DNA of 64,000 bases from Dehalococcoidia bacterium (GCA_030740155.1 JASLXV010000038.1:100956-164955), one strand, 5' to 3'. Numbered from the stretch's first letter, positions 1 through 12,058 are shown. Notes: generated from the sequence alone by a model not told the origin. Numbers and translations: made by a program.

Positions 1-7
1 CACAATA

Positions 8-901
8 GTGAAACGGCAACGCAAGCAATTTAGGCGAACGCAGGATTTTCTGTGTCCTGCTCATGAAATCTGTATTTCGCCAACGACGTTCGTGTATGGG
101 AACGAGACGGACAATCTCCTGTGGACCGACCCTGAGGACCTGGATCTTCTTCGCCGGCTTAATGTAGTCAAACGCGAGAGCCGCATGGAGCATGACAACA
201 GCGAAGACGCTGTGACCTGGAACGTGTTCCGCTACCTGGAGAAGACGGAGCAACTCTCTGACTTCCTGTCGTCCATGATCAAACGCCGAGTAGGCAACGC
301 GGAGCTAATATACTGGTCCTACGGTCAAGAAGTAGATAGGGTGTGGCCGGAACTGAAGAAAGCCAGGAAGGAATTTGGTGAACACTCGGGACGAGGCACT
401 GAGCCCGATTTGATCATCGTCACCGACAATGCGTTGTTCTGGGTTGAAGCAAAGCTGACCGCCTCGAACGATACTTGCCCCAGTAATCCTCAAGACAGAA
501 AAAAGTACGAGTCAGGTGGCGACAAATGGTATGAGCAGGTATTTAGCTCCGAGTTTGAAGTGCTGGCGATCAGAGAGAAGAAATACGAGTTGATGCGCAT
601 GTGGCTCACGGGAAGCTGGGCTGCGGTGCCGTTGAATCGTCGCTTCTACTTGGTCAATCTGGTCCGGGCAGAGAGCGAGAAAGACATCGAGCCCCGCTTT
701 GGGCCGCACCTCAAGATGGACGCAGAGAAACGCTTCCTGCGCTGGACCTGGGAGGACGTCTACTACTTCGTCTCGAAGAATGCCCCACCAAGCCCCGAGA
801 AGCAAAAGTTCATGACATATTTTGAAAACAAGACGATCGGATACAAGCAAGTCCGTGGTTCGGAAAGCTGGGAGCTGCAACTGGCCTTCCACCTAACTTG
901 A
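8..901 (+). CDS. Hypothetical protein, PD-(D/E)XK nuclease-like; may be 5'-truncated by the window edge
   Basis: Motif TEPDLII...WVEAKL fits PD-(D/E)XK; SEDAVTWNVF segment; reading frame is open upstream of the GTG at 8; visibly less GC-rich than neighbours. Confidence 0.55.
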   Translation: MKRQRKQFRRTQDFLCPAHEICISPTTFVYGNETDNLLWTDPEDLDLLRRLNVVKRESRMEHDNSEDAVTWNVFRYLEKTEQLSDFLSSMIKRRVGNAELIYWSYGQEVDRVWPELKKARKEFGEHSGRGTEPDLIIVTDNALFWVEAKLTASNDTCPSNPQDRKKYESGGDKWYEQVFSSEFEVLAIREKKYELMRMWLTGSWAAVPLNRRFYLVNLVRAESEKDIEPRFGPHLKMDAEKRFLRWTWEDVYYFVSKNAPPSPEKQKFMTYFENKTIGYKQVRGSESWELQLAFHLT

Positions 902-911
902 GAATTAGGAG

Positions 912-1292
912 ATGAGAATGCCTCGAGGAATCCGCATCACGGCCGGCCCTGTCCAATTGAATGCCCAGCTTAACGGCACCGAAACGGCGGGGGCCGTCTG
1001 GGATGCGTTACCCATAGAGGAGCCGGCGGGCACCTGGGGTGACGAAATCTACTTCGGTATCCCGGTGGAGGCAGACCTGGAGGCGGGCCAGGAGGTGGTG
1101 GAGATGGGAGACCTGGGCTACTGGCCGCCGGGCAATGCTTTCTGCATCTTCTTCGGGCGCACGCCGGCCAGCCGGGGCGACGAGATACGCCCGGCCAGCG
1201 CCGTGACCGTGATCGGGAAGGTTGAGGGAGACGCCACCGCGTTCAAGCAGGTGAAACCGGGCACCCCGGTGGCCATCGAACGGGCCGTCTAA
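912..1292 (+). CDS. Cyclophilin-like fold protein (DUF369-type)
   Basis: WGDEIYF, GDLGYWPPGNAFCIFFG and RPASAVTVIG motifs; RBS AGGAG upstream. Confidence 0.85.
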   Translation: MRMPRGIRITAGPVQLNAQLNGTETAGAVWDALPIEEPAGTWGDEIYFGIPVEADLEAGQEVVEMGDLGYWPPGNAFCIFFGRTPASRGDEIRPASAVTVIGKVEGDATAFKQVKPGTPVAIERAV

Positions 1293-1324
1293 CGCGTCCT
1301 TGACGCAGGTGAACCGTCTACAAT

Positions 1325-1512
1325 CTCATCCAATAACCAGCCGCCGAAGGTCGATAGGTCCGACTTCGTCGAGACTCTCGATGGAATCGGAACTCACCAC
1401 GAACGGGGCGAAATCCCTGAACGGAGGAATCCACGGGCGAGAGGAATCCGTTCGTCCTGAGCTTGTCGAAGGGGCGTGAGCGGCCTCCTTTGGAATAGTT
1501 GGATAGGCCCTA
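1325..1512. mobile_element. MITE-like repeat family A, copy 1 (contains a nested hairpin at about 1360-1391)
   Basis: CTCACCACGAACGG ... CCGTTCGTCCTGAGCTTGTCGAAGG ... TTGGATAGGCCCTAG; collinear with 25188-25433 in reverse. Confidence 0.7.
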
Positions 1513-1526
1513 GTAAGGAGCAACGG

Positions 1527-3890
1527 ATGGTGAGCAAGGTAGAAACTGAGCAAACGGCGGCGGGAGCGCTGCGGGGAGTCCGGGTGTTAGATTTCGGCCA
1601 TTACATTCCCGGCCCCTTGCTGGGCATGCTGTTGTCCGACCAAGGGGCCGACGTCATCAAGGTGGAGCGGCCCGAAGGAGACCCGGCGCGGCGTCACGCG
1701 GCGTTCTCCACCTGGAACCGGGGGAAGCGCTCCGTAGTCCTCGACCTGAAGTCCGAGGAGGGCCGGCGCCACGCCCAGGCCCTGGCCGGGAACGCCGATG
1801 TCTTGATCGAGAATTTTCGGCCCGGAGTGGCCGACCGCCTGGGCATCGGCTACGGCACGTTGTCGCAGGCGAATCCGGCTCTGATCTACTGTTCCTTGCC
1901 GGGCTTCGGCGAGGAGAGTCCCTATCGTGATCAGCGAGGCTGGGAGTCCATTGTGGGCGCGGCGACCGGGATTCACCGGGCCGCCCGTGGCCTGGACGAG
2001 CCGTTGTTCGTACCCCTCCCCTTCACCAGCACCTTCGCCGCCATCATCGGCGCGGTTTCCGTGGGAATGGCCCTCTGTGCCCGGCAGCGTACCGGCGAGG
2101 GCCAGCGGATCGAGGTCCCGCTTCACAGCGCCATGTTCACGGGGATCGGCCGGTATATGGTCAAGATGCACGACATGGACGTCGAGTACCCCTTCGAGTT
2201 GCCCCGGCGGACCATGGTCAAGCAGTACCGGTGCTCCGACGGCCGGTTCATCCAGCTTCAGGGAATGTACGAGCGGTTCCCCAGGCGGTTTTTGACCGCC
2301 GCCGGACACCCAGAGTGGGTCGAGGAATTCGTGGCCGGCTTCGGCGAGCAGGTGGACAACCAGACTGTAAACATGTGGCGGGAGCGGTTCAGGAACATCT
2401 TCCTGCAGCGGACGGCTGAAGAGTGGGAGACCGCCCTCGCCGATGCTGGGGGCGCTGGCTCGCTTTGCCGGTCCGTTGACGAGTGGCTGGTCCACGAGCA
2501 GGCCATTGCCGCCGGCATGGTGGCCGAGGTTGACGACAGCCGGTTTGGCCTCATGAAACAGCCGGGGATACCCATGAAACTCCGGGGCACCCCCGGGGCG
2601 ATTCAAGGCCGGGCGCCGCGGCTGGGGGAGCACACCGAACAGGTTTTGGGGCAGTTGGACGCTGCCGCCAGTTCGGCGTCCACTCCCGCGAGAGCCGGCG
2701 GACCCCAATCCGCGGCGCCGGTGGAAGACGTGATGGGCGCCCTACAGGGGGTGCGCGTCCTGGACCTGTGTATCGTCCTGGCCGGGCCGGCTTGCGGCCG
2801 CACCCTAGGAGAGTTTGGCGCCGACGTGATCAAGATCAACGACGCCTCCCGGCCCGTCGACATGGAGGGCTCGCTGGACGTAAACCGGTGCAAACGCTCC
2901 ATTCTGCTGAACTTGAAGACGGAGGAAGGCCAGGAGGTGTTCTGGCGGCTGGTGGAAAAAACCGACGTCATCGTGGAGAACAACCGGAAGGGCAGCTTGG
3001 CCCGGCTGGGGCTGGGCTATGAGGACGTCAAAAAGAGGAAGCCTGACATCATCTACGCCTCGTTGAACACCTACGGTTACGACGGTCCCTGGAGCGAGCG
3101 GCCCGGCTGGGAGCAGATGGCCCAGGCGGTCACCGGGATCGAGGTCCGCCGGGGCGGCCGGGACGGGATGCCGCTGATGTTCCACTACCCGGTGAACGAC
3201 TACGGCACCGGGCTGCTGGGAGCCTACGCGGTGGCCCTGGCTCTCCTCGAACGGAACCGCACCGGCGAAGGGCAGTCGGTCGACTGCGGACTGGCGCTGA
3301 CCGCCTGCCTGCTCCAGTCACCCTACTTCCTGGACTACGCCGGCTTCCAACGCGACGAACCGGAAGGCCTGGGAGTCCGAGGGTATTCGGCGCTATCCAG
3401 ACTGTACCCCGCCGCTGATGCCTGGCTATATTTGCATTGCCCCGAGGAGGCCGGCTGGCGAAATTTGACCGCCCTGCCCGAGTTCGCGGCGCTGGCCGCG
3501 GACCCTCGCTACGGCGCCGCCGCTTCTCGCGAGGAAAGCGATGGAGAGCTGGTGGCGGAGTTGGTCCGAATCTTTGCGCTCAAGAACCGGCGGCAGTGGG
3601 TCGGCCAGCTGAACGCGGCGGGAATCAGCGCCATCGAAAACGTGGACATGCTTGAGCTTCGGGACGACCCTTACGTGCGGCGGGCCGGTTTGGTCCTCAC
3701 GCGAGAGCATCCGGGCCGCGGCCGGGCGGACCAGGTAGGCACCACGGCCCGCTTGTCCGGTACACCGGTACGGCTGGGGCGGGCGGCCCCCATCCTTGGC
3801 GCCGAAACCAACGAGATACTCTGGCAAGCCGGCTACACCGATGGTGAGATCGAGGCCTTGAAGTCGGCCGGGGTGGTGTCTGGGCCCTAG
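1527..3890 (+). CDS. Tandem two-domain family-III CoA-transferase (CaiB/BaiF)
   Basis: Two LxGVRVLD...GADVIK...NRxKRS..L.LK repeats; AAGGAG RBS before the ATG at 1527. Confidence 0.9.
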   Translation: MVSKVETEQTAAGALRGVRVLDFGHYIPGPLLGMLLSDQGADVIKVERPEGDPARRHAAFSTWNRGKRSVVLDLKSEEGRRHAQALAGNADVLIENFRPGVADRLGIGYGTLSQANPALIYCSLPGFGEESPYRDQRGWESIVGAATGIHRAARGLDEPLFVPLPFTSTFAAIIGAVSVGMALCARQRTGEGQRIEVPLHSAMFTGIGRYMVKMHDMDVEYPFELPRRTMVKQYRCSDGRFIQLQGMYERFPRRFLTAAGHPEWVEEFVAGFGEQVDNQTVNMWRERFRNIFLQRTAEEWETALADAGGAGSLCRSVDEWLVHEQAIAAGMVAEVDDSRFGLMKQPGIPMKLRGTPGAIQGRAPRLGEHTEQVLGQLDAAASSASTPARAGGPQSAAPVEDVMGALQGVRVLDLCIVLAGPACGRTLGEFGADVIKINDASRPVDMEGSLDVNRCKRSILLNLKTEEGQEVFWRLVEKTDVIVENNRKGSLARLGLGYEDVKKRKPDIIYASLNTYGYDGPWSERPGWEQMAQAVTGIEVRRGGRDGMPLMFHYPVNDYGTGLLGAYAVALALLERNRTGEGQSVDCGLALTACLLQSPYFLDYAGFQRDEPEGLGVRGYSALSRLYPAADAWLYLHCPEEAGWRNLTALPEFAALAADPRYGAAASREESDGELVAELVRIFALKNRRQWVGQLNAAGISAIENVDMLELRDDPYVRRAGLVLTREHPGRGRADQVGTTARLSGTPVRLGRAAPILGAETNEILWQAGYTDGEIEALKSAGVVSGP

Positions 3891-4101
3891 GCCGGACTAG
3901 AGTACTTCTCGGGCCATAGAGACCTCCCGGCGGCCGGCCTGCTGGGCCAGCGCCGGCGCCACTGGATTTGCCGCTGGCGAAATCGCGGCGCTGCTGGGGA
4001 GAGGGGCACGGTGCGTAGCCGGAGGCCCCGGCAATTGGCGATGCGTTCCCCCGCGTGCTAAACTGCTATTATCGGTTCCAAATAGACTTCGGATTGCCTA
4101 A

Positions 4102-4156
4102 GACCCCCATCCTCGCCTTCTCCCCCCTCACGAATGAGGAGAGTTAGAATGGGGGT
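4102..4156. repeat. Intergenic palindromic repeat (CCCCCATCCT...CTCCCC...GAG...TGGGGG type); similar element at 58051-58089
   Basis: Imperfect inverted repeat of pyrimidine and purine tracts. Confidence 0.45.
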
Positions 4157-4183
4157 TCACTCGTATATACCCGTCGGATAAGG

Positions 4184-6394
4184 GTGAGCCGGTTGCTTCG
4201 CATCTACAACACCCTGACCAAACAGGTCGAAGAGGTCCGGTCGATTGAACCGGGCCTTGTCCGCATGTACACCTGCGGTCCGACCGTCTACCGTGACGCT
4301 CACATCGGCAACCTTCGCACCTACATGATGGCTGACTGGGTCCGCCGCGTCATCGAGGCCGGGGGCCGGGAAGTGTTCCACATCAAGAACATTACCGACG
4401 TGGGCCACATGCGTCAGGAGTTGGTGGAGACAGGCGGCGACAAGATGATCTTGGCCGCCCTGAGCGAAGGCAAGACGGTTCAGGACATAGCTCAGTTCTA
4501 CGCCGGCCGCTTCTTCCGCGACGAGGCCCGGATCAACATCCTCCCCGCCCACGTATTCCCCTGGGCGACCCAGCACATCCCGGAGATGGTGTCCATCGTG
4601 GGCCGGCTCCTGGCGAGCGGCCATGCCTACCATGCGGGCGGCAACATCTACTTCGACGTGGGACGTTTCAATGGCTACGGCAAGCTCTCCCGCAACACTG
4701 GGGCCGACCTGTTGGAAGGGGTGAGGGCGGAAGCGGACCCATTGAAACACGACCCCCGGGATTTCACTCTGTGGAAGGCCGCTGAGCCGGGCCGGGACTT
4801 GAAGTGGGCCAGCCCTTGGGGTGAAGGGTTCCCCGGCTGGCACATCGAATGCTCCGCCATGGCTTCCAAGTACCTGGGGGAAACCTTCGACATCCACACC
4901 GGCGGCGTGGACAACATCTTTCCCCACCACGAAGACGAGATTGCCCAGAGCGAGGCCGCCTTCGGGCGGCAGCACGTGCGATATTGGATCCACGCCCAGC
5001 ACCTCTTGGCCGACGGCGCCAAGATGGCCAAATCCTCGGGCAACGTCTTCTTGCTGGAGGATCTGATAGCCCGCGGTTTCGACCCGCTTGCTTTCCGCTA
5101 CCTCTGCATGACCGTCCGCTATCGCCACCGGATGAACTTCACTTTCACCTCTCTCAAGGCCGCCGAAAGAGCCCTCACCAACCTGCGACACCGGGTCTGG
5201 GTATGGAATGACCTGCCCCCCCTGGCTGAGCTGCCCGCTGAGGCCGGAGAGTGGCGGAGCCGGTTCTGGACCAGGGTGGAAGACGACCTGGATCTGCCGG
5301 GAGCGTTGGCCCTGACCTGGGACATGATGCGTTCCGGCCTGCCCGATCCAGTCAAACTGGCCTTGCTTCTCGAATTTGACCGCATCTTTTGCCTGGACCT
5401 GGACAAAGTGCCGGCGGCCTATCCGCTTCCCGAGTCGATCTCGGCCGCCGCCGGGAAACGCGCGGCACTCCGAGAGCACGCCGACTATGGCTCCGCGGAC
5501 ACCGTCCGCACCCAAATGGCCTCCGAGGGTTACTCGGTCGAAGATACCCGGGAAACCGTCCGCATCCGGCCGAAGACGGCAATGGAACGGCAACGGGAAC
5601 GGTGGCAGTCCTTCTCCTCCTCGCGGGAGGTGGAGTCCTTCCTGGGGCGCTCCCCGGAATACGACTTCACCTTCGTTCTCAACGCCTATGGTTACCGTGA
5701 TGACATCGAGCGGTGCGTCCGCAGCATGACCCGGTTCGGCGAAGGCTTCTCCACGGAGATTGTCCTCATCGACAACGGTTCTATTGACGGGACCGGTGAA
5801 TGGCTGGAGGAGTATCAGGCCGGCCGGCCGTCGGTGCGGGTGGTCCATTGCGACCACCCCCTCGGCGACGCCGCCGGCAAGAACATCGGGTTGAAGCAGA
5901 GCCTGGGGGCAAATGTCATCATCCTGGACCCTTCAGCGGAGATCTTGGGCAACATCCTGGGGCCCATCGCACGGCAGCTGGCGGATGGCTCGGTGGGCAT
6001 AGTTGGCCCCTACGGGCTGAGCACCAACGATCTGCGGCACTTCCATGAGGATGCGGAGAACGGAGAGGCGGATGCCATGCAGGCCTATTGCATGGCGTTC
6101 CGGCGGGAGACGGTGAACACCGTCGGGCTGATGCGGGAATGCTTCCGTTTCTATCGCAATCTGGATATCGACTACTGCTTCCAGTTCAAGGATAAAGGGT
6201 ACCGTATCCTCGCCGACAGCACGTTGCCAATGGTCCGCCACGAGCACCGGCAATGGACCGAGCTGGAAGAAAACCAGAGGGACGAGCTGAGCCGCAAGAA
6301 TTTCGGACGCTTCCTCAAGCGTTGGGGCAACCGGCCGGACCTCCTCGTCAGCCCCGGCGGCCAAGGCGTGGGCGACACCTTTTCCCATCACTGA
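4184..6394 (+). CDS. cysS: Cysteinyl-tRNA synthetase with C-terminal glycosyltransferase family 2 domain (fusion)
   Basis: YTCGPTVY, HIGN, PGWHIECSAM, DIHTGGVDNIFPHHEDE and KMAKS; anticodon helix R..LR...DY..AD..R; then GT-A motifs IVLIDNGSIDGT, GKNIGLK and IILDPS. Confidence 0.88.
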   Translation: MSRLLRIYNTLTKQVEEVRSIEPGLVRMYTCGPTVYRDAHIGNLRTYMMADWVRRVIEAGGREVFHIKNITDVGHMRQELVETGGDKMILAALSEGKTVQDIAQFYAGRFFRDEARINILPAHVFPWATQHIPEMVSIVGRLLASGHAYHAGGNIYFDVGRFNGYGKLSRNTGADLLEGVRAEADPLKHDPRDFTLWKAAEPGRDLKWASPWGEGFPGWHIECSAMASKYLGETFDIHTGGVDNIFPHHEDEIAQSEAAFGRQHVRYWIHAQHLLADGAKMAKSSGNVFLLEDLIARGFDPLAFRYLCMTVRYRHRMNFTFTSLKAAERALTNLRHRVWVWNDLPPLAELPAEAGEWRSRFWTRVEDDLDLPGALALTWDMMRSGLPDPVKLALLLEFDRIFCLDLDKVPAAYPLPESISAAAGKRAALREHADYGSADTVRTQMASEGYSVEDTRETVRIRPKTAMERQRERWQSFSSSREVESFLGRSPEYDFTFVLNAYGYRDDIERCVRSMTRFGEGFSTEIVLIDNGSIDGTGEWLEEYQAGRPSVRVVHCDHPLGDAAGKNIGLKQSLGANVIILDPSAEILGNILGPIARQLADGSVGIVGPYGLSTNDLRHFHEDAENGEADAMQAYCMAFRRETVNTVGLMRECFRFYRNLDIDYCFQFKDKGYRILADSTLPMVRHEHRQWTELEENQRDELSRKNFGRFLKRWGNRPDLLVSPGGQGVGDTFSHH

Positions 6395-6621
6395 AGGCGG
6401 CTCGGCGACGGATTTTTTCGGCGCCGGGGTAGGGGCCAGGCACAGGAATGTGATCCTCCGGTTATCCGATTTGCCCTCTCCCGCTTCGGCGCCCAACTGT
6501 TTTTACCGGACATAACGAGTTTTCAGTGAATCATCGTTCGGCGAAGTGCCAATATATCCCGCTGAAGAATAGCTCGAATCCCGCACGCCCGGTGCAGATT
6601 GGCGCAACACTGCATATTGCC

Positions 6622-6701
6622 TTCACAAACTGTTCACGTAGTTTTTACAAAGTGGGGCACCGGCCGGGTCTCTTGACGGGCCTGACCGGGGATGCTAGAG
6701 T
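6622..6701 (+). promoter_or_regulatory. Sigma70-like promoter (TTGACG-17-TAGAGT, extended -10) preceded by three 11-bp-periodic TT(C/T)AC(A/G) boxes
   Basis: TTCACA 6622, TTCACG 6633, TTTACA 6644; -35 at 6673-6678; -10 at 6696-6701. Confidence 0.5.
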
Positions 6702-6762
6702 CCAAAAGGCCCGGTCGGTTGCTCTTTTCAGACCGCATCCCCTGACCTGGAGTCCCTACCAG

Positions 6763-7743
6763 ATGGAGGAAGCTGCCCAGCGGTTGTTGGCGGGGGACCA
6801 GCGCATCCTCTCCCGGCTGATCTCTCTCCTCGAACGGGGCGATCCGCGAGCCGCCGACGTATTGAAGGCCATAGATTCTCGCACTGGCCGAGCCTATACC
6901 GTCGGCATTACCGGACCGCCCGGCGCCGGAAAGAGCACCATCGTAGACCGGCTTACCGAACTGTTGCGCGGTCAAGGACTGACCGTAGGCATCGTTGGGG
7001 TCGACCCCAGCAGCCCATTTAGTGGCGGCGCCTTGCTCGGAGACCGGGTTCGGATGCAGCGTCACTATCTGGACTCGGGGGTTTTCATCCGTAGTGTGGC
7101 GACTCGCGGACACTCTGGGGGGCTGTCCCGGATCGTCAAAGGCATTGTCCGGCTTCTGGATGCCGCCGGCACGGACATTATCCTGGTGGAAACCGTGGGC
7201 GTCGGCCAGACCGAATTGGGTATCGTCGGAGTCGCGGATACGATCTTGCTGACCTTGATGCCCGAATCAGGAGACGCCATTCAGGCCCTTAAAGCGGGAG
7301 TCATGGAAGTGGCGGACGTCTTTCTGGTCAACAAGGCGGACCGGGAGGGTGCGGACCATATGGCGGCGGCCATTAATGGGATGGTCCAGATGGTCGATAC
7401 CCACTCCGGCTGGACTCCTCCAGTGGTGTTGACCACCGCCCGGTCGGGCCAGGGCATCGAAGAGTTGTGGAACAAGATCCAGGCCCATCGAGAGGTACTT
7501 ACGGCTACGTCCGAGTTGGCCAGGCGCCGCGGGGCTCACCGGCGACGGGAATTCCTGGAGACAGTGCAAGAAGAGTTGGAACGGCGGCTTAAGGCACTTG
7601 TTGAAAACGATCCGGTTATGGAGGCCACTTTGGAGAAGGTGGCGAACCGGGAAGCAGAGCCGTACTCGTCGGCCATGGAATTCCTGAACTCTTCGCAACT
7701 GCCGCCGGAGTGGCTCGCCACTCTGCCGGTCAAGCAGGATTAG
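6763..7743 (+). CDS. meaB: MeaB/ArgK (methylmalonyl-CoA mutase-associated) GTPase
   Basis: GITGPPGAGKST, VDPSSPFSGGALLGDRVRM, VETVGVGQ and NKAD. Confidence 0.92.
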   Translation: MEEAAQRLLAGDQRILSRLISLLERGDPRAADVLKAIDSRTGRAYTVGITGPPGAGKSTIVDRLTELLRGQGLTVGIVGVDPSSPFSGGALLGDRVRMQRHYLDSGVFIRSVATRGHSGGLSRIVKGIVRLLDAAGTDIILVETVGVGQTELGIVGVADTILLTLMPESGDAIQALKAGVMEVADVFLVNKADREGADHMAAAINGMVQMVDTHSGWTPPVVLTTARSGQGIEELWNKIQAHREVLTATSELARRRGAHRRREFLETVQEELERRLKALVENDPVMEATLEKVANREAEPYSSAMEFLNSSQLPPEWLATLPVKQD

Positions 7744-7850
7744 TCTTTTCCGAGCCTTATCCCCGTATTGCGGAACCGCTTGTGATGAGGATGACCGTCG
7801 GCCAATAGCAGACGGTTTTTGACCACCTTTTTCTATATCGGAGTATCAGA

Positions 7851-8489
7851 ATGGTTATTCTTGGAGTTGATCTCCGGGCCTCGTCCAAACGTGCCAGCAC
7901 AGTGGTTGGATTGGATGGGAAATCCTGTGTAAAGTTCATCGATAGTTTTCACGACGACAGCGAGCTGGTTCAAATTGCTGAGAGCCACAAACCTGAGCTT
8001 ATTGCGATAGGCGCTCCCCTGGGACTGCCGGCCGGCCTGTGCTGTTTGGAGACCACCTGCGATTGCTGTTTCTCGGTTCCGCTACGGAAGGGCCGCCAGT
8101 CGGAACTGGAGCTATCTCGGATGGGAATCAGCTGCTTCTTCACCAACAAGGGCTCCATCATCCGCAACCTGATATACCGGAGCATGGCGTTGAGCCGCCT
8201 GCTGAGCGGGCTGGGATTAGAAGTCATTGAGGCCTATCCCCACGCGACCAAGGTGATCCTCTTCGGTGACAAGGTACCGCCGAAAAACAACGCCGAGAGC
8301 CTGGTATTCATGAAAGAGCGGCTCGCCCTTCTGATAGCCGGCTTGAGCCCCCACTTGGACGGGCTGGACCGCAACACCTGCGACGCGGTGCTGAACGCGT
8401 ATACGGGCCTGCTCTACACTCAAGACGCCACCGACACCCTCGGCGCTCCCGAAGAGGGCACGGTGGTCCTGCCGAAGCTTCCCCGTTAA
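7851..8489 (+). CDS. DUF429 family protein (RNase H-like fold)
   Basis: ILGVDL, IAIGAPL, IEAYPHAT and DAVLNAY motifs. Confidence 0.75.
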   Translation: MVILGVDLRASSKRASTVVGLDGKSCVKFIDSFHDDSELVQIAESHKPELIAIGAPLGLPAGLCCLETTCDCCFSVPLRKGRQSELELSRMGISCFFTNKGSIIRNLIYRSMALSRLLSGLGLEVIEAYPHATKVILFGDKVPPKNNAESLVFMKERLALLIAGLSPHLDGLDRNTCDAVLNAYTGLLYTQDATDTLGAPEEGTVVLPKLPR

Positions 8490-8892
8490 GGCTCATTCCG
8501 GCTGAGGGACCTCTCGTAATGGGAGGCCCCGGCTCCTCATTGACTTGGGCCATGAGCCCCGACGCCACCTGCCTGCGCCTTTCCCCATCGGTGGCTGAAC
8601 TTCCAGCTTTATCCCTCCACGATGGCCCTGGTTCGGTAGAGGCGGGTCCCTTGATTCGCCTCCGGGCGCGCCGAGTTCCGGATTGAGCCTCTGTGGCGGG
8701 TGATGCCTGGCACCCGTCACTCTGGCGAAACAAGCGATACCGCCATTTCGAGGAGCGTATCTATCCTGTTCCCGAAACGCTGGGCCGGCAGGATTCCGGC
8801 GCGGCGCGTCCTTGATTCAGCTGCTGGGTACGTTACACTATTAGTAGAGGAATTGCGGGTTGAGAGCCGATCAGGGCAAGGAGGTAGGGACA

Positions 8893-9465
8893 TTGGATCT
8901 GAAGATAAATGGCAGAAACGTTGAGATCAGTGACCAAGTCCGCAAGCACGTCACCGAAAAGCTGGGCCGGATCGGCCGGCACCTTCCCGGGATCACCAAG
9001 GCCGCGGTCGAGCTTGCATCGGAGCCTACCCGCTCGCAGCGAGACCGGGTGGTGGCCCAGGTGACCCTCGATGTGAGCGGTTCCATTCTTCGCGCCGAGC
9101 AGCAGGCGTCCAACACCGAGGCGGCCATCAACTCGGTGGCCGAGGTGCTGGCCCGGAGGATAGAACGGTATAAGAGCCGGACCTATCGCAGCGAACGGGC
9201 CCGGCAGACCACTTCTCTCAGGGTCCAAGAAGCCGAAGAGGCGGTCCCCTCGGCAAGTCCGTTCGAAGGTAAGGAGCTGGGCGACGGCAACCTGGTGCGG
9301 ATCAAGCGGTTCAATATGAAGCCCATGTCAGTGGACGACGCGGCCTTCCAGATGAGGCTGCTCGGCCATCACTTCTTCATGTTCCTGAATGACGAATCGG
9401 ACCAGTACAACCTGTTGTACCAGCGAGACGACAACAATCTTGGCCTCATCCAACCCAAGGGCTAG
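8893..9465 (+). CDS. hpf: Ribosome hibernation factor, long HPF/RaiA
   Basis: INGRNVEIS..., L.RRIERYK; C-terminal KPMSVDDAAFQM.LLGH.FF.F...YQRDD; GGAGG RBS before the TTG at 8893. Confidence 0.92.
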   Translation: MDLKINGRNVEISDQVRKHVTEKLGRIGRHLPGITKAAVELASEPTRSQRDRVVAQVTLDVSGSILRAEQQASNTEAAINSVAEVLARRIERYKSRTYRSERARQTTSLRVQEAEEAVPSASPFEGKELGDGNLVRIKRFNMKPMSVDDAAFQMRLLGHHFFMFLNDESDQYNLLYQRDDNNLGLIQPKG

Positions 9466-9534
9466 CCGCCCGCCCGGTCGGCACGCATAAGCGGGCTACT
9501 CGCCCAGGTTCATCAGAAAAGACCGGAGAAGCAT

Positions 9535-9568
9535 GAAGGGCCTCATTCTTGCAAGAATGAGGCCCTTC
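9535..9568. terminator. Perfect 34-bp palindrome between convergent hpf and SPFH genes; candidate bidirectional terminator
   Basis: GAAGGGCCTCATTCTTG|CAAGAATGAGGCCCTTC; no clear U-tract. Confidence 0.5.
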
Positions 9569-9608
9569 GGTCGCTACAGGGAACGTAGGGGCGGCCCCGT
9601 GGCGGACT

Positions 9609-10478
9609 CTAGGTCCCGCTGCCGCCTCCCTGCTGCTCGTTGCCCTGGCCCATGCCCAGGAAGGGCGACAGCATGGAGGTGAACTCCATGGGGAAGATCC
9701 ACTTGGTGGAAGGGCTGGAGCCAAGCGCCTTCAGGGTTTCGAAGTACTGGAGGCTCATGGTCTTGCCATCCACCGTGTTGGCCACCTGGTAGATCTTGTC
9801 CAGCGCGTTGCTGAACCCCTCGGCCCGCAGGATGGCCGCCTCCCGGTCTCCCTCAGCCTCCAGGATAGCCGCTTGGCGGCTCCCCTCGGCCTCCAGGATG
9901 GCCGCCTGCTTCTCACCCTCGGCCCGGTTGATCTGGGCCTGGCGCGCGCCCTCGGACTCTGTTATCTCGGCGGTCTTGATGGCGGCGGCGGATTTTTCCC
10001 GCTCCATCGCCTGTTTCACCCCCGCCGGCGGGTCGATCTCGTTGATCTCCACCTGCTTGACCTTGACTCCCCAGCGGTCGGTGACCTCGTCCATTCGTAC
10101 CTGCATCTGGTCACGGATCCTTTCCCTTTCGGCCAAAGCCGAGGACAGAGTGGTGGAGCCGATGACCGCCCGCAGTGTGGCGTAAGCCAGGTTAACCACG
10201 GCCATCTCGAAGTTCTGCACATCGAGGACCGCCTTCTCGGCAATCTCTTCCAGGACCTGGTAGTAGATCACGAAGTCCATGTCTACCACCACGTTGTCCG
10301 AGGTAATGTACTTTTGGGTTGGAACCCGCGCAACCCTCTCTCGCGTGTCCACCTTGGTGCCGTGGTACAGAATGGGTATCAGAAAGTGCAAACCGGGTCC
10401 CCGGGTCCCAACGAAAGTCCCGAGCTTTTGGGCTACCAGCCTTTGATATTGCTGCACGATTACCAGTCCGGACGCCAT
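9609..10478 (-). CDS. SPFH/band 7 (stomatin/QmcA-like) protein
   Basis: PGLHFLIP, ITSDNV, TLRAVIG, WGVKV..VEI; C-terminal AAILEAEG repeats. Confidence 0.92.
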   Translation of the reverse strand: MASGLVIVQQYQRLVAQKLGTFVGTRGPGLHFLIPILYHGTKVDTRERVARVPTQKYITSDNVVVDMDFVIYYQVLEEIAEKAVLDVQNFEMAVVNLAYATLRAVIGSTTLSSALAERERIRDQMQVRMDEVTDRWGVKVKQVEINEIDPPAGVKQAMEREKSAAAIKTAEITESEGARQAQINRAEGEKQAAILEAEGSRQAAILEAEGDREAAILRAEGFSNALDKIYQVANTVDGKTMSLQYFETLKALGSSPSTKWIFPMEFTSMLSPFLGMGQGNEQQGGGSGT

Positions 10479-10509
10479 CGCTACCTCCTGAAGGAGTTAT
10501 CAGATTCCA

Positions 10510-11916
10510 TCATATAGATTCGATATCTTGCCGGTAAACCGTTAGAATTAGGCCATCTTTCCTGGATACCATAACTGATTCGCCCACCTCTATCACGCTA
10601 CCATCTTCACTCTCCGCTGTCCAGGTTTCGCTCTCTACCCGGACCAAACCTCGGGGGGACAGTTCATCGATAACAGTGCCCATCATCCCTTCCAACGACG
10701 GCTTGACGGGCGGGCGTCCCTCTTTTCGAGATTGGTAGATCACTCGGAGCACGGACAGGAGGGTCAGGCCCAGCGCCCCCGCGGTGCCGCCCACCAGCCA
10801 CCGGTTGACCGACACTGGCGGTAGAGTGGGTGACCCGCCGCCAAACTGGGTAAACAGCAGCAGTCCGCCGACGGTAAAGCTGATTATGGAGCCGACGCCC
10901 AGGATACCGAAGCCGGCCACCTGGGTTTCCAGGACCGCCAGCAAGATGGCCACGGCGATGAAGGCCACCCCGGCCCAGTTGATCGGCAGGTTGCCGAAAG
11001 CCAAAAAGGCCAGCATCAGGGATATGACGCCGACCACGCCGGGGGCGATCAGGCCGGGATTGAACACCTCGACGACGATGCCCAAGCTGCCCACGGTGAG
11101 CAGGATGAAGGAGATATTGGGGTCGGAGATGAACTCCAGGAAGTGTTCCAGCACGTTCTTTTCGAGCCGGCGCTGGGATAGGTCGCGGGTGTCCATGGTG
11201 TGGGAACCGGTGGCGGTCTGTACCGTCCGGCCGTGTAGCTGGGCCAGCAAGTCGTCCAGGTCGTCCGCGATGAAGTCCACCACATTGAACCCCACCGCCT
11301 CCCTGGCGCTGAAGGATGCAGCCTCCCGGACCGTCTCCTCCAGCTTGTCCTGGTTCCGTCCCCGCTCCTGGGCGATGCTGCGGATCAGCGCGGCCGCATC
11401 GTTGGTGACCTTGTTGGCCAGGGTCTCACCCAGGTCCTCACCGGTACCGGAGATTGGCGTGGCCGCCCCGATGTTCGTGCCGGGAGCCATGACCGCGAAA
11501 TGGCCCGCCGCGGTGATGAAGGTGCCCGCCGAGCCGGCCCGGGCTCCCCGGGGAGAGACGAAGACCGCCACCGGCACCGGGGATTCCAGCAACTCCTCTA
11601 CTATCTTTCTAGTGGAGCTGAGCAGGCCTCCCGGGGTATCGAGTTCGATGATCAGGAGAGTGGCCCCGTCCTCTTGGGCCTGCTCGATGGCCCGGGCAAT
11701 GAACCTCTCTTTGACCGGGTTGATAATGCCGTCCACCTCGGCCACCAGGGCGTGAGGCGTCTGCGCAAGGGCCAGAGTAGAGCCTAGCAGTCCACTCAGC
11801 CCTACGGCCGCGAAGACGATAACCAGAGCTATCCGGGGCCAGCCGGACGAAAACACGGTCACGTACCTGTGGCCCGGTAGTTTCGGCGATGCGTCCGCTG
11901 TCGGGCCTACTTTCAT
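10510..11916 (-). CDS. nfeD: NfeD long-form membrane serine protease (ClpP-like + TM + OB fold); start uncertain
   Basis: LDTPGG, ARAGSAG, MAPGTNIGAA, TM helices and C-terminal G.V.V.SETW; upstream of the SPFH gene. Confidence 0.9.
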   Translation of the reverse strand: MKVGPTADASPKLPGHRYVTVFSSGWPRIALVIVFAAVGLSGLLGSTLALAQTPHALVAEVDGIINPVKERFIARAIEQAQEDGATLLIIELDTPGGLLSSTRKIVEELLESPVPVAVFVSPRGARAGSAGTFITAAGHFAVMAPGTNIGAATPISGTGEDLGETLANKVTNDAAALIRSIAQERGRNQDKLEETVREAASFSAREAVGFNVVDFIADDLDDLLAQLHGRTVQTATGSHTMDTRDLSQRRLEKNVLEHFLEFISDPNISFILLTVGSLGIVVEVFNPGLIAPGVVGVISLMLAFLAFGNLPINWAGVAFIAVAILLAVLETQVAGFGILGVGSIISFTVGGLLLFTQFGGGSPTLPPVSVNRWLVGGTAGALGLTLLSVLRVIYQSRKEGRPPVKPSLEGMMGTVIDELSPRGLVRVESETWTAESEDGSVIEVGESVMVSRKDGLILTVYRQDIESI

Positions 11917-11998
11917 GATCCTTCACCGCTTGGGGGATGTCAATTGGGCTAGCTATCGGGGGAGGTTGACGACGGCATACGGAAGACCGCCGGAGTTC

Positions 11999-12058
11999 TT
12001 GACACCCAAGGCCATGGCTGTATAATGAGACACAATCGGGAAATTGGTCTGACCACTT
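11999..12058 (+). promoter_or_regulatory. Near-consensus sigma70 promoter (TTGACA-16-TATAAT) plus FadR-type operator AATTGGTCTGACCACTT overlapping the regulator start
   Basis: TTGACA 11999-12004, TATAAT 12021-12026, palindrome TGGTCTGACCA within 12042-12058. Confidence 0.8.

Follow-up and report, generated by a model that had tools for sequence, protein, structure and literature searches.

A CysRS-glycosyltransferase fusion family of Chloroflexota, putatively directed to tRNA-Cys

Introduction

Why would a bacterium join a complete cysteinyl-tRNA synthetase (CysRS) to a glycosyltransferase (GT)? The question arises from an open reading frame (ORF) in a 64,000-nucleotide stretch of DNA from a Dehalococcoidia bacterium (GCA_030740155.1, JASLXV010000038.1:100956-164955), the whole of which is here called the window. 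An earlier reading, made from the sequence alone, had noted a CysRS followed by an atypical family 2 glycosyltransferase (GT2) domain and had proposed that the protein channels Cys-AMP or Cys-tRNA into a sugar-linked product, such as a new low-molecular-weight thiol, by analogy with the CysRS paralogue MshC of mycothiol synthesis, or that it modifies tRNA. Our verdict is that the fusion represents a real, conserved and undescribed family of GT-A enzymes which, judged by sequence, are probably directed to tRNA-Cys. Is the fusion genuine? Does it serve translation? Which part of the synthetase stays with the GT domain, and on what might that domain act? We consider these questions in turn.

Validity and distribution of the fusion

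Translation bears out the single uninterrupted frame of 736 residues and every motif quoted in the sequence-only reading: YTC31GP, H40IGN, WHIEC223, PH248HEDE252, K280MAKS and K425RAALREHADYGSADTVR in the CysRS part, ID530NGSIDGT, GKN567IGLK, D582PS and R658NLDID in the GT part. The true start is likely the TTG at 4193 (733 residues) rather than the GTG, on account of an upstream AAGGG and the length of 732-733 residues typical of close homologues. The domain boundaries given by Pfam are residues 19-328 for the CysRS catalytic domain (tRNA-synt_1e, PF01406, E 1e-94) and 498-609 for GT2 (PF00535, E 1.5e-13). The AlphaFold2 model of the whole length has a mean pLDDT of 90.3 and a pTM of 0.87.

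A fusion confined to this assembly, through misassembly or a lost stop codon, had been named as fatal to the idea. Such an artefact is ruled out by widespread homologues and by an independent bridging contig. A protein search with the GT part matched 952 proteins, and among the 120 homologues listed the majority are CysRS+GT2 proteins of 732-737 residues, the named hosts being Chloroflexota. The contig, from an independent run of marine DNA, extends over 4891-6700, including the domain junction, with one mismatch and no gaps. At E<=1e-25 the GT family takes in 2,125 protein clusters, out of 8,000 candidates scored. It is frequent in marine Dehalococcoidia as well as in other Chloroflexota; database labels of its members are plain cysteine-tRNA ligase or glycosyltransferase. 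No phage copies were found. In three metatranscriptomes parts of both domains are matched by RNA contigs, but such contigs cannot show transcription and are not used as evidence.

Distribution was assessed in 401 genomes of the phylum, of which 95 matched the GT domain and 92, counting that of the window, were kept. The three weak matches dropped are G105, where the locus is a generic GT2, and G012 and G315, with 29-31% identity in very long frames. The genome loci, surveyed for fused and split versions and their neighbourhoods, yielded 111 fusions besides 44 genuine standalone GTs, with no universal partner gene; a locus cut by the contig end (L133), a split fusion (L098) and one outside the family (L220) were left out. 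Counts out of 112 fusions add the window's own. Labels of the type f54 are the tool's codes for families. Six unpublished genomes (G336, G131, G038, G203, G264 and G168) are counted in the 401-genome and family tallies, none being decisive alone; a fusion from G336 (L144) is one of the 111.

Table 1. Features of the fusion protein and their positions in the window
Feature	Residues	Position	Strand	Basis
CysRS-GT2 fusion ORF, from GTG	736 in all	4184..6394	+	Single uninterrupted frame
CysRS catalytic domain (C31, HIGN 40-43, W219, C223, H248, E252, KMAKS 280-284)	19-328	4238..5167	+	Pfam PF01406, invariance, 1U0B
GHMRQE insertion of the fusion's CysRS clade	74-79	4403..4420	+	Conservation across fusions
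Helical bundle, DALR-like	321-402	5144..5389	+	Model secondary structure and Borrelia CysRS alignment
tRNA-Cys anticodon-binding domain (CysS_C)	415-463	5426..5572	+	1LI5/1U0B alignment, motif counts
Linker: short helix and conserved SSxxVPSxLxEPD	464-492	5573..5659	+	Model and conservation
GT-A (GT2) domain	493-720	5660..6343	+	VIA-align fold match, conservation counts

The anticodon-binding domain stays with the glycosyltransferase

All 44 standalone GTs start with the CysRS anticodon-binding domain (CysS_C, here also called the reader), with the pattern R, R/K, D, R/K, D kept (in L211 as judged by eye). In the window's protein the five positions are Arg426, Arg430, Asp439, Arg442 and Asp454, which align with Arg423, Arg427, Asp436, Arg439 and Asp451 of the Escherichia coli enzyme (1LI5/1U0B). 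Arg423 and Asp451 are presumably also among the residues that read G34 and C35. Arg427, Asp436 and Arg439 are named as anticodon-domain residues of CysRS in the available part of PMC13449415. Pairwise identity averages 93% at the five reader positions, against 41% at the remaining 24. The motif is found by pattern in 106 of the 111 fusions; L113 has a decayed reader. The Pfam CysS_C model at E 0.001 does not detect the window's copy. The spacing from Asp454 to the GT domain is 32-46 residues in fusions and 20-38 in standalones.

In a midpoint-rooted FastTree phylogeny of the GT domain the standalones fall in basal groups and in two groups nested among fusions. The nested ones are apparently later fissions that again left the reader on the GT. 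From the invariant reader residues we infer that the anticodon domain binds tRNA-Cys. Seven standalones of f43 (L114-L117, L119, L120 and L230) have an intact reader but decayed GT motifs; most are flanked by a mannose-1-phosphate guanylyltransferase-like gene on one side and oligopeptidase F on the other.

The synthetase half is a second copy with intact catalytic residues

The fusion scores 387 bits on the TIGR00435 cysS profile, against a cut-off of 340, and the full-length CysRS that had been read from the sequence, with HIGN, KMAKS, the zinc ligands and the anticodon helix, is present in all its parts. The fused catalytic domains, 110 of 110, all have Cys31, His40, Trp219, Cys223, His248, Glu252, Met281 and Lys283. 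They form a single clade (support 0.995) inside a CysRS type that a GH[ML] insertion distinguishes. In the fusions this insertion reads GHMRQE (Gly74, His75 and Met76 in 110/110, Arg77 in 109/110); it is missing from 16 CysRS of other types that were aligned, and a similar insertion is present in Borrelia CysRS.

The search for a second, unfused cysS, which had been proposed earlier, located one in an ispD-ispF-cysS cluster on another contig (C32; 503 bits). This rules out the fusion as the sole housekeeping CysRS of the window's genome, and with it, given the conserved GT motifs described below, the other circumstance that would have undone the proposal, a degenerate GT on the only synthetase. 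Among 70 genomes searched the fusion occurs in 69 (split in one), and 68 of the 69 have at least one further CysRS-family gene; G437 has the fusion only. The fusion is thus confirmed as a second, non-housekeeping CysRS paralogue. Since its catalytic residues are invariant although the copy is spare, charging appears to be selected together with the GT domain.

A CysRS of the same clade occurs in 83 of 91 GT-positive genomes and in 25 genomes without the GT. Dependence of the GT on such a synthetase is rejected, as four genomes of f54 carry a standalone GT with only a different CysRS type. A further architecture, a cysteine synthase (CysM) fused ahead of a CysRS-like domain with altered motifs, was seen at L318:2972-5368, in a genome that also carries a CysRS-GT2 fusion and an ordinary cysS.

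The GT-A domain is conserved but atypical

That the C-terminal part is a GT-A domain, with DPS in place of DxD and RNLDID in place of the usual ED.D, is upheld by profile and by fold. It scores 51 bits on PF00535 (cut-off 23), its model has a pLDDT of 93.8, and VIA-align matches it to PcManGT, GalNAc-T1, K4CP, WrtF and SpsA with Z of 18.6-20.2 and a root-mean-square deviation (RMSD) of 3.2-3.7 Å over 208-239 residues. The conserved motifs are Asp530-Asn, D582-x-S-x-E586 at the DxD place, Y657-R-N-L-D661 at the WGGED/xED place, H686-x-H688-R-x-W691, Arg699 and S703-R-K-N706. Among the 112 fusions Tyr657, Arg658, Asp661, Ser703 and Asn706 are present in all, Asp582, His688 and Trp691 in 111, and Glu586 and His686 in 110.

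The metal-binding DxD is lacking. The sequence reads D-T/P-S, the third position is serine in 101/112 and aspartate is never among its common residues. The place of the general base is filled by Asp661 in every fusion and in 44 of 46 non-fusion rows, and the residue lies at the start of a model helix (660-670); its register against xED, like the replacement of the WGGE-D loop by YRNL-D, comes from a weak hidden Markov model segment. By sequence, then, the domain is conserved but atypical, with the general base retained, the usual metal and donor-sugar acids gone and basic residues added. Loss of DxD does not exclude activity, as metal-independent GT2 enzymes exist; WrtF, a GT2 without DxD, is active without metal according to the accessible portion of its report (PMC12595478).

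A peptidase S51-like family shares the reader and nearly excludes the GT

A search with the reader recovered a second family, in which a peptidase S51-like serine hydrolase is fused to CysS_C (loci L194-L199, L201, L328-L339 and L370-L388). The S51 domain is N-terminal to the reader, in some members with a DALR-like helix between them, and no fusion to a CysRS catalytic domain was seen. All five reader residues are present in 31 of 32 S51 matches fetched. The S51 family matches 112 of the 401 genomes, an overstated figure as the f64 match has no reader, and the GT family 92, with five genomes in common against 25.7 expected. Within nine mixed families five genomes have both against 14.6 expected, P being 6e-8 when family size is taken as the known members. 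Of the five overlap genomes four belong to f54, and their GTs retain 12, 13, 14 and 22 of the 26 motif residues. Where S51 is missing in f54, the count is 24-25 for five GTs and 21, 18 and 14 for three. The GT thus tends to decay where S51-CysS_C co-occurs.

In f65 the fusion of G299 and the S51-CysS_C gene of G379 sit at the same place, X in sufC-sufR-X-amidohydrolase-grpE, in opposite orientation and with flanks 62-89% identical. In-place replacement would explain this, and so would a former pair of neighbours that has lost one member. A short S51 gene without a reader adjoins both the fusion (L135, L137 and L140) and S51-CysS_C (L370, L371, L376 and L377), at 44-54% identity. S51 enzymes act on acyl bonds, so interchange of the GT with such an enzyme points to the aminoacyl end of the tRNA, and S51-CysS_C is a candidate Cys-tRNA-Cys deacylase or transacylase.

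Proposed function and its alternatives

The GT-A domain may work on Cys-charged tRNA-Cys provided by the fused synthetase, in the style of ErdS and LysX, to yield a cysteine-sugar conjugate; we judge this reading to be evenly poised between right and wrong. The dedicated second CysRS, its motifs intact, would charge tRNA-Cys, the anticodon-binding domain with its invariant G34/C35-reading residues would hold it, and the GT-A domain would then act on the cysteinyl end outside translation. Either a sugar from a nucleoside diphosphate (NDP)-sugar would be placed on the cysteine, as an S- or N-glycoside, or a repurposed GT-A fold would transfer the cysteinyl group to a sugar acceptor. The product in both cases would be a conjugate of cysteine and sugar, perhaps a thiol-related metabolite. 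For standalone CysS_C-GT2 proteins the source of Cys-tRNA-Cys would be the housekeeping synthetase, and other Chloroflexota would do the same task with the S51 serine acyl-hydrolase/transferase bearing the same reader. Action on Cys-tRNA-Cys is favoured because two things point to the charged end: the invariance of a spare synthetase, and the interchange of the GT with an acyl-hydrolase/transferase. We also advance, while holding it slightly doubtful as a whole, a wider formulation. In it a GT-A enzyme with a stolen anticodon domain acts directly on Cys-tRNA-Cys, either glycosylating the bound cysteine or transferring this to a sugar, and GT2 and S51 are two unrelated enzymes that can replace each other in an undescribed tRNA-Cys-dependent pathway in about half of the Chloroflexota sampled.

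Several observations weigh against action on the charged end. Fusions of f51 (L152, L324 and P0185) have no reader, the catalytic domain and helical bundle being followed directly by the GT, and a metagenome cluster (P0151) appears to be GT-only. The f43 standalones keep 15-19 of 26 motif residues even in genomes without a fusion or an S51 match. The exclusion could reflect competition for one tRNA site and not identical chemistry; moreover its within-family P becomes 0.015 if families are 1.5x larger, and kin are not independent. No gene that would make an acceptor or use a product is conserved next to the GT across 120 loci. The main difficulty is the tether, which in standalones leaves 20-38 residues after Asp454. 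The 3' end of a tRNA lies about 75 Å from the anticodon, and a GT tied to the reader by as few as 20 residues would reach it only by full extension or in an oligomer. A complex prediction with residues 1-410 and 474-722 scored 0.03, gives no answer and is not used as evidence.

The short tether favours glycosylation of a tRNA-Cys nucleotide near the anticodon arm (base or 2'-OH), as in eukaryotic queuosine glycosylation, with the CysRS charging or delivering the modified tRNA. The GT would lie close to the anticodon, the invariant basic residues (Arg641, Arg655, Arg658, Arg699 and Arg/Lys704-705) would suit an RNA acceptor, the standalones always retain the reader, and glycosylated anticodon nucleosides are reported in vertebrates. 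We nevertheless think it unlikely, though worth serious attention, as it leaves unexplained both an invariant catalytic CysRS beside a housekeeping copy and the interchange with an acyl-hydrolase. Nor is there a special tRNA-Cys: the window's genome has one ordinary gene, and the loop reads C/U-U-GCA-A-A in 24/24 GT-positive and 30/30 GT-negative genomes. A hydroxylated i6A37 as acceptor is disfavoured, MiaE not being found in any of five genomes searched and MiaA occurring in 78 of 80 irrespective of the GT. The loss of the second DxD aspartate and of the xED glutamate, the interchange with a hydrolase fold and the degenerate f43 standalones that still retain the reader and Asp661 would also agree with a GT-A domain that has lost sugar transfer. 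Together with the reader such a domain might exercise quality control on tRNA-Cys, stripping a wrong or damaged residue, or might sense or sequester the tRNA, as S51-CysS_C may do. This seems improbable to us: the nucleotide-binding half (Asp530-Asn531, Gly561, Asn567 and Asp582) is conserved in fusions, an editing domain would more simply be placed on the housekeeping CysRS, and we know of no GT-A deacylase.

The analogy with MshC, in which an amino-sugar glycoside made by the GT would receive Cys-AMP from the CysRS half independently of tRNA, giving a new low-molecular-weight thiol, is opposed by the standalones, which retain the reader and discard the catalytic domain. The f51 fusions without a reader would fit it, as would thiol-flavoured neighbours in some lineages (a PIG-L deacetylase at nine, glutaredoxin at seven and a DinB/MST S-transferase at three of 120 loci) and the window's genome itself, which has an MshA-like GT4 gene and no MshC-like or BshC match (BshC was not found in any of five genomes searched). 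The fusion, however, scores 215 bits on the TIGR03447 MshC profile, whose cut-off is 485, and has an anticodon domain with intact residues, which MshC lacks. Separate MshC-like genes also coexist with it, 18 of 20 third CysRS-like genes fetched from fusion genomes being anticodon-less, with 342-397 bits on the MshC model, below its cut-off. As judged by bits and frame length, MshC-like genes occur in 7/11 GT-positive, 17/34 S51-positive and 16/19 double-negative genomes. An MshA-like gene is present in 272 of the 401 genomes; none turned up among the GT-positive members of f32 and f54. Neither kind of gene tracks the GT family, and we consider the MshC-like route very improbable. The Cys-AMP part of the sequence-only reading is accordingly unsupported, while the Cys-tRNA-dependent or tRNA-directed roles it also named fit the data. 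Its new-thiol idea is left without a conserved thiol operon around the gene; a thiol role in the window's genome is possible, as an MshA-like gene is present and an MshC-like match absent.

Comparison with known systems

The synthetase half resembles bacterial class I CysRS (E. coli 1U0B/1LI5, Borrelia 3SP1, TIGR00435, PRK14536 type) in catalytic domain, zinc ligands, HIGN and KMAKS, bundle and anticodon domain, the best structural match being 1U0B (Foldseek RMSD 3.6 Å over 485 columns). It differs in the added C-terminal GT-A domain and, for 68 of 69 genomes, in its presence beside another CysRS. The nearest parallels in design are ErdS (AspRS-DUF2156) and LysX (LysRS-MprF), in each of which a dedicated synthetase is likewise fused to a second enzyme beside a housekeeping synthetase. 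Their transferase has a GNAT/DUF2156 fold and acts on lipids, whereas the second domain of the fusion is GT-A and not GNAT/DUF2156. The CCA end of the tRNA swings between two sites in ErdS, according to the part of PMC13219428 available, and synthetase-transferase fusions are treated in the accessible sections of a review (PMC9437257).

MshC too is a CysRS paralogue employed outside translation in a sugar-related context; the fusion differs from it in the reader and in a CysRS-type GVR loop. MshC presumably has an ERGGDP-type loop, which is seen in the third CysRS-like genes. GT2/GT-A enzymes (PcManGT 6YV7, K4CP 2Z86, SpsA 1H7L and WrtF 9OMH) share the fold, and Asp661 aligns weakly with the GGED of K4CP, but the fusion has D-T/P-S for DxD, Y-R-N-L for WGGE, an added H-x-H-R-x-W, a basic C-terminal helix and the anticodon reader.

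QTGAL, which we take to be a GT2 enzyme, and QTMAN reportedly decorate a tRNA anticodon loop with sugar. YadB (Glu-Q-RS) is a synthetase paralogue modifying the anticodon loop, in the same accessible sections of PMC9437257. All three need Q34 in GUN tRNAs and none uses a CysRS anticodon domain, while tRNA-Cys is GCA. S51-CysS_C has the same reader with its five residues, a complementary distribution and a shared slot and neighbour, but a serine-hydrolase fold.

In the portion available, a table of the 2022 review of synthetase paralogues (PMC9437257) lists only CysRS* and MshC for CysRS. A literature search found no description of a CysRS-GT2 fusion; supplements to comparative-genomics papers, outside that search, could list the architecture. 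To our knowledge no glycosyltransferase of bacteria is guided to a particular tRNA by an anticodon-binding domain, and the search found none. Either of the leading readings, if true, would mean new chemistry, whether a sugar is transferred on aminoacyl-tRNA (or an aminoacyl group by a GT-A enzyme) or tRNA is glycosylated in bacteria. The exchange between GT and S51-CysS_C joins two large unstudied families to a single question, and both are soluble proteins.

Genomic context and further observations

No operon is conserved across the 120 loci, where only lineage-specific synteny (pyruvate kinase, MeaB, recO and ETF) was seen. No tRNA-Cys gene is linked to the GT in 112 loci scanned, no T-box or other riboswitch was found in window positions 1-12000 or in nine loci, and a promoter and terminator scan gave no signal above chance. 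At the three DinB/MST loci an unfused CysRS of the same type is the tail-to-tail neighbour of the standalone GT. At L034:642-1811 a FemAB-family gene immediately precedes a standalone CysS_C-GT2, and a VKOR gene lies downstream.

Upstream of the fusion, window positions 1476-3890 encode an 804-residue protein of two tandem family III CoA-transferase units, conserved beside the fusion outside the window's genome only at L041. A histidine-rich tail (at least 10 His in 58-109 residues), possibly metal-binding, ends 21 of the 111 fusions (L014, L018, L023-L031, L033, L135, L137-L143, L145 and L011).

Elsewhere in the window's genome a GNAT/FemAB-like gene lies directly before the MshA-like GT4 gene, stop and start touching (L261:6713-8913, contig C25 of G000). 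Chloroflexota commonly carry anticodon-less MshC-like ligases (L304-L317, L319-L322 and L340-L369), which score 333-409 bits where the cut-off is 485; with the MshA-like genes they suggest that the phylum may have a mycothiol-like pathway.

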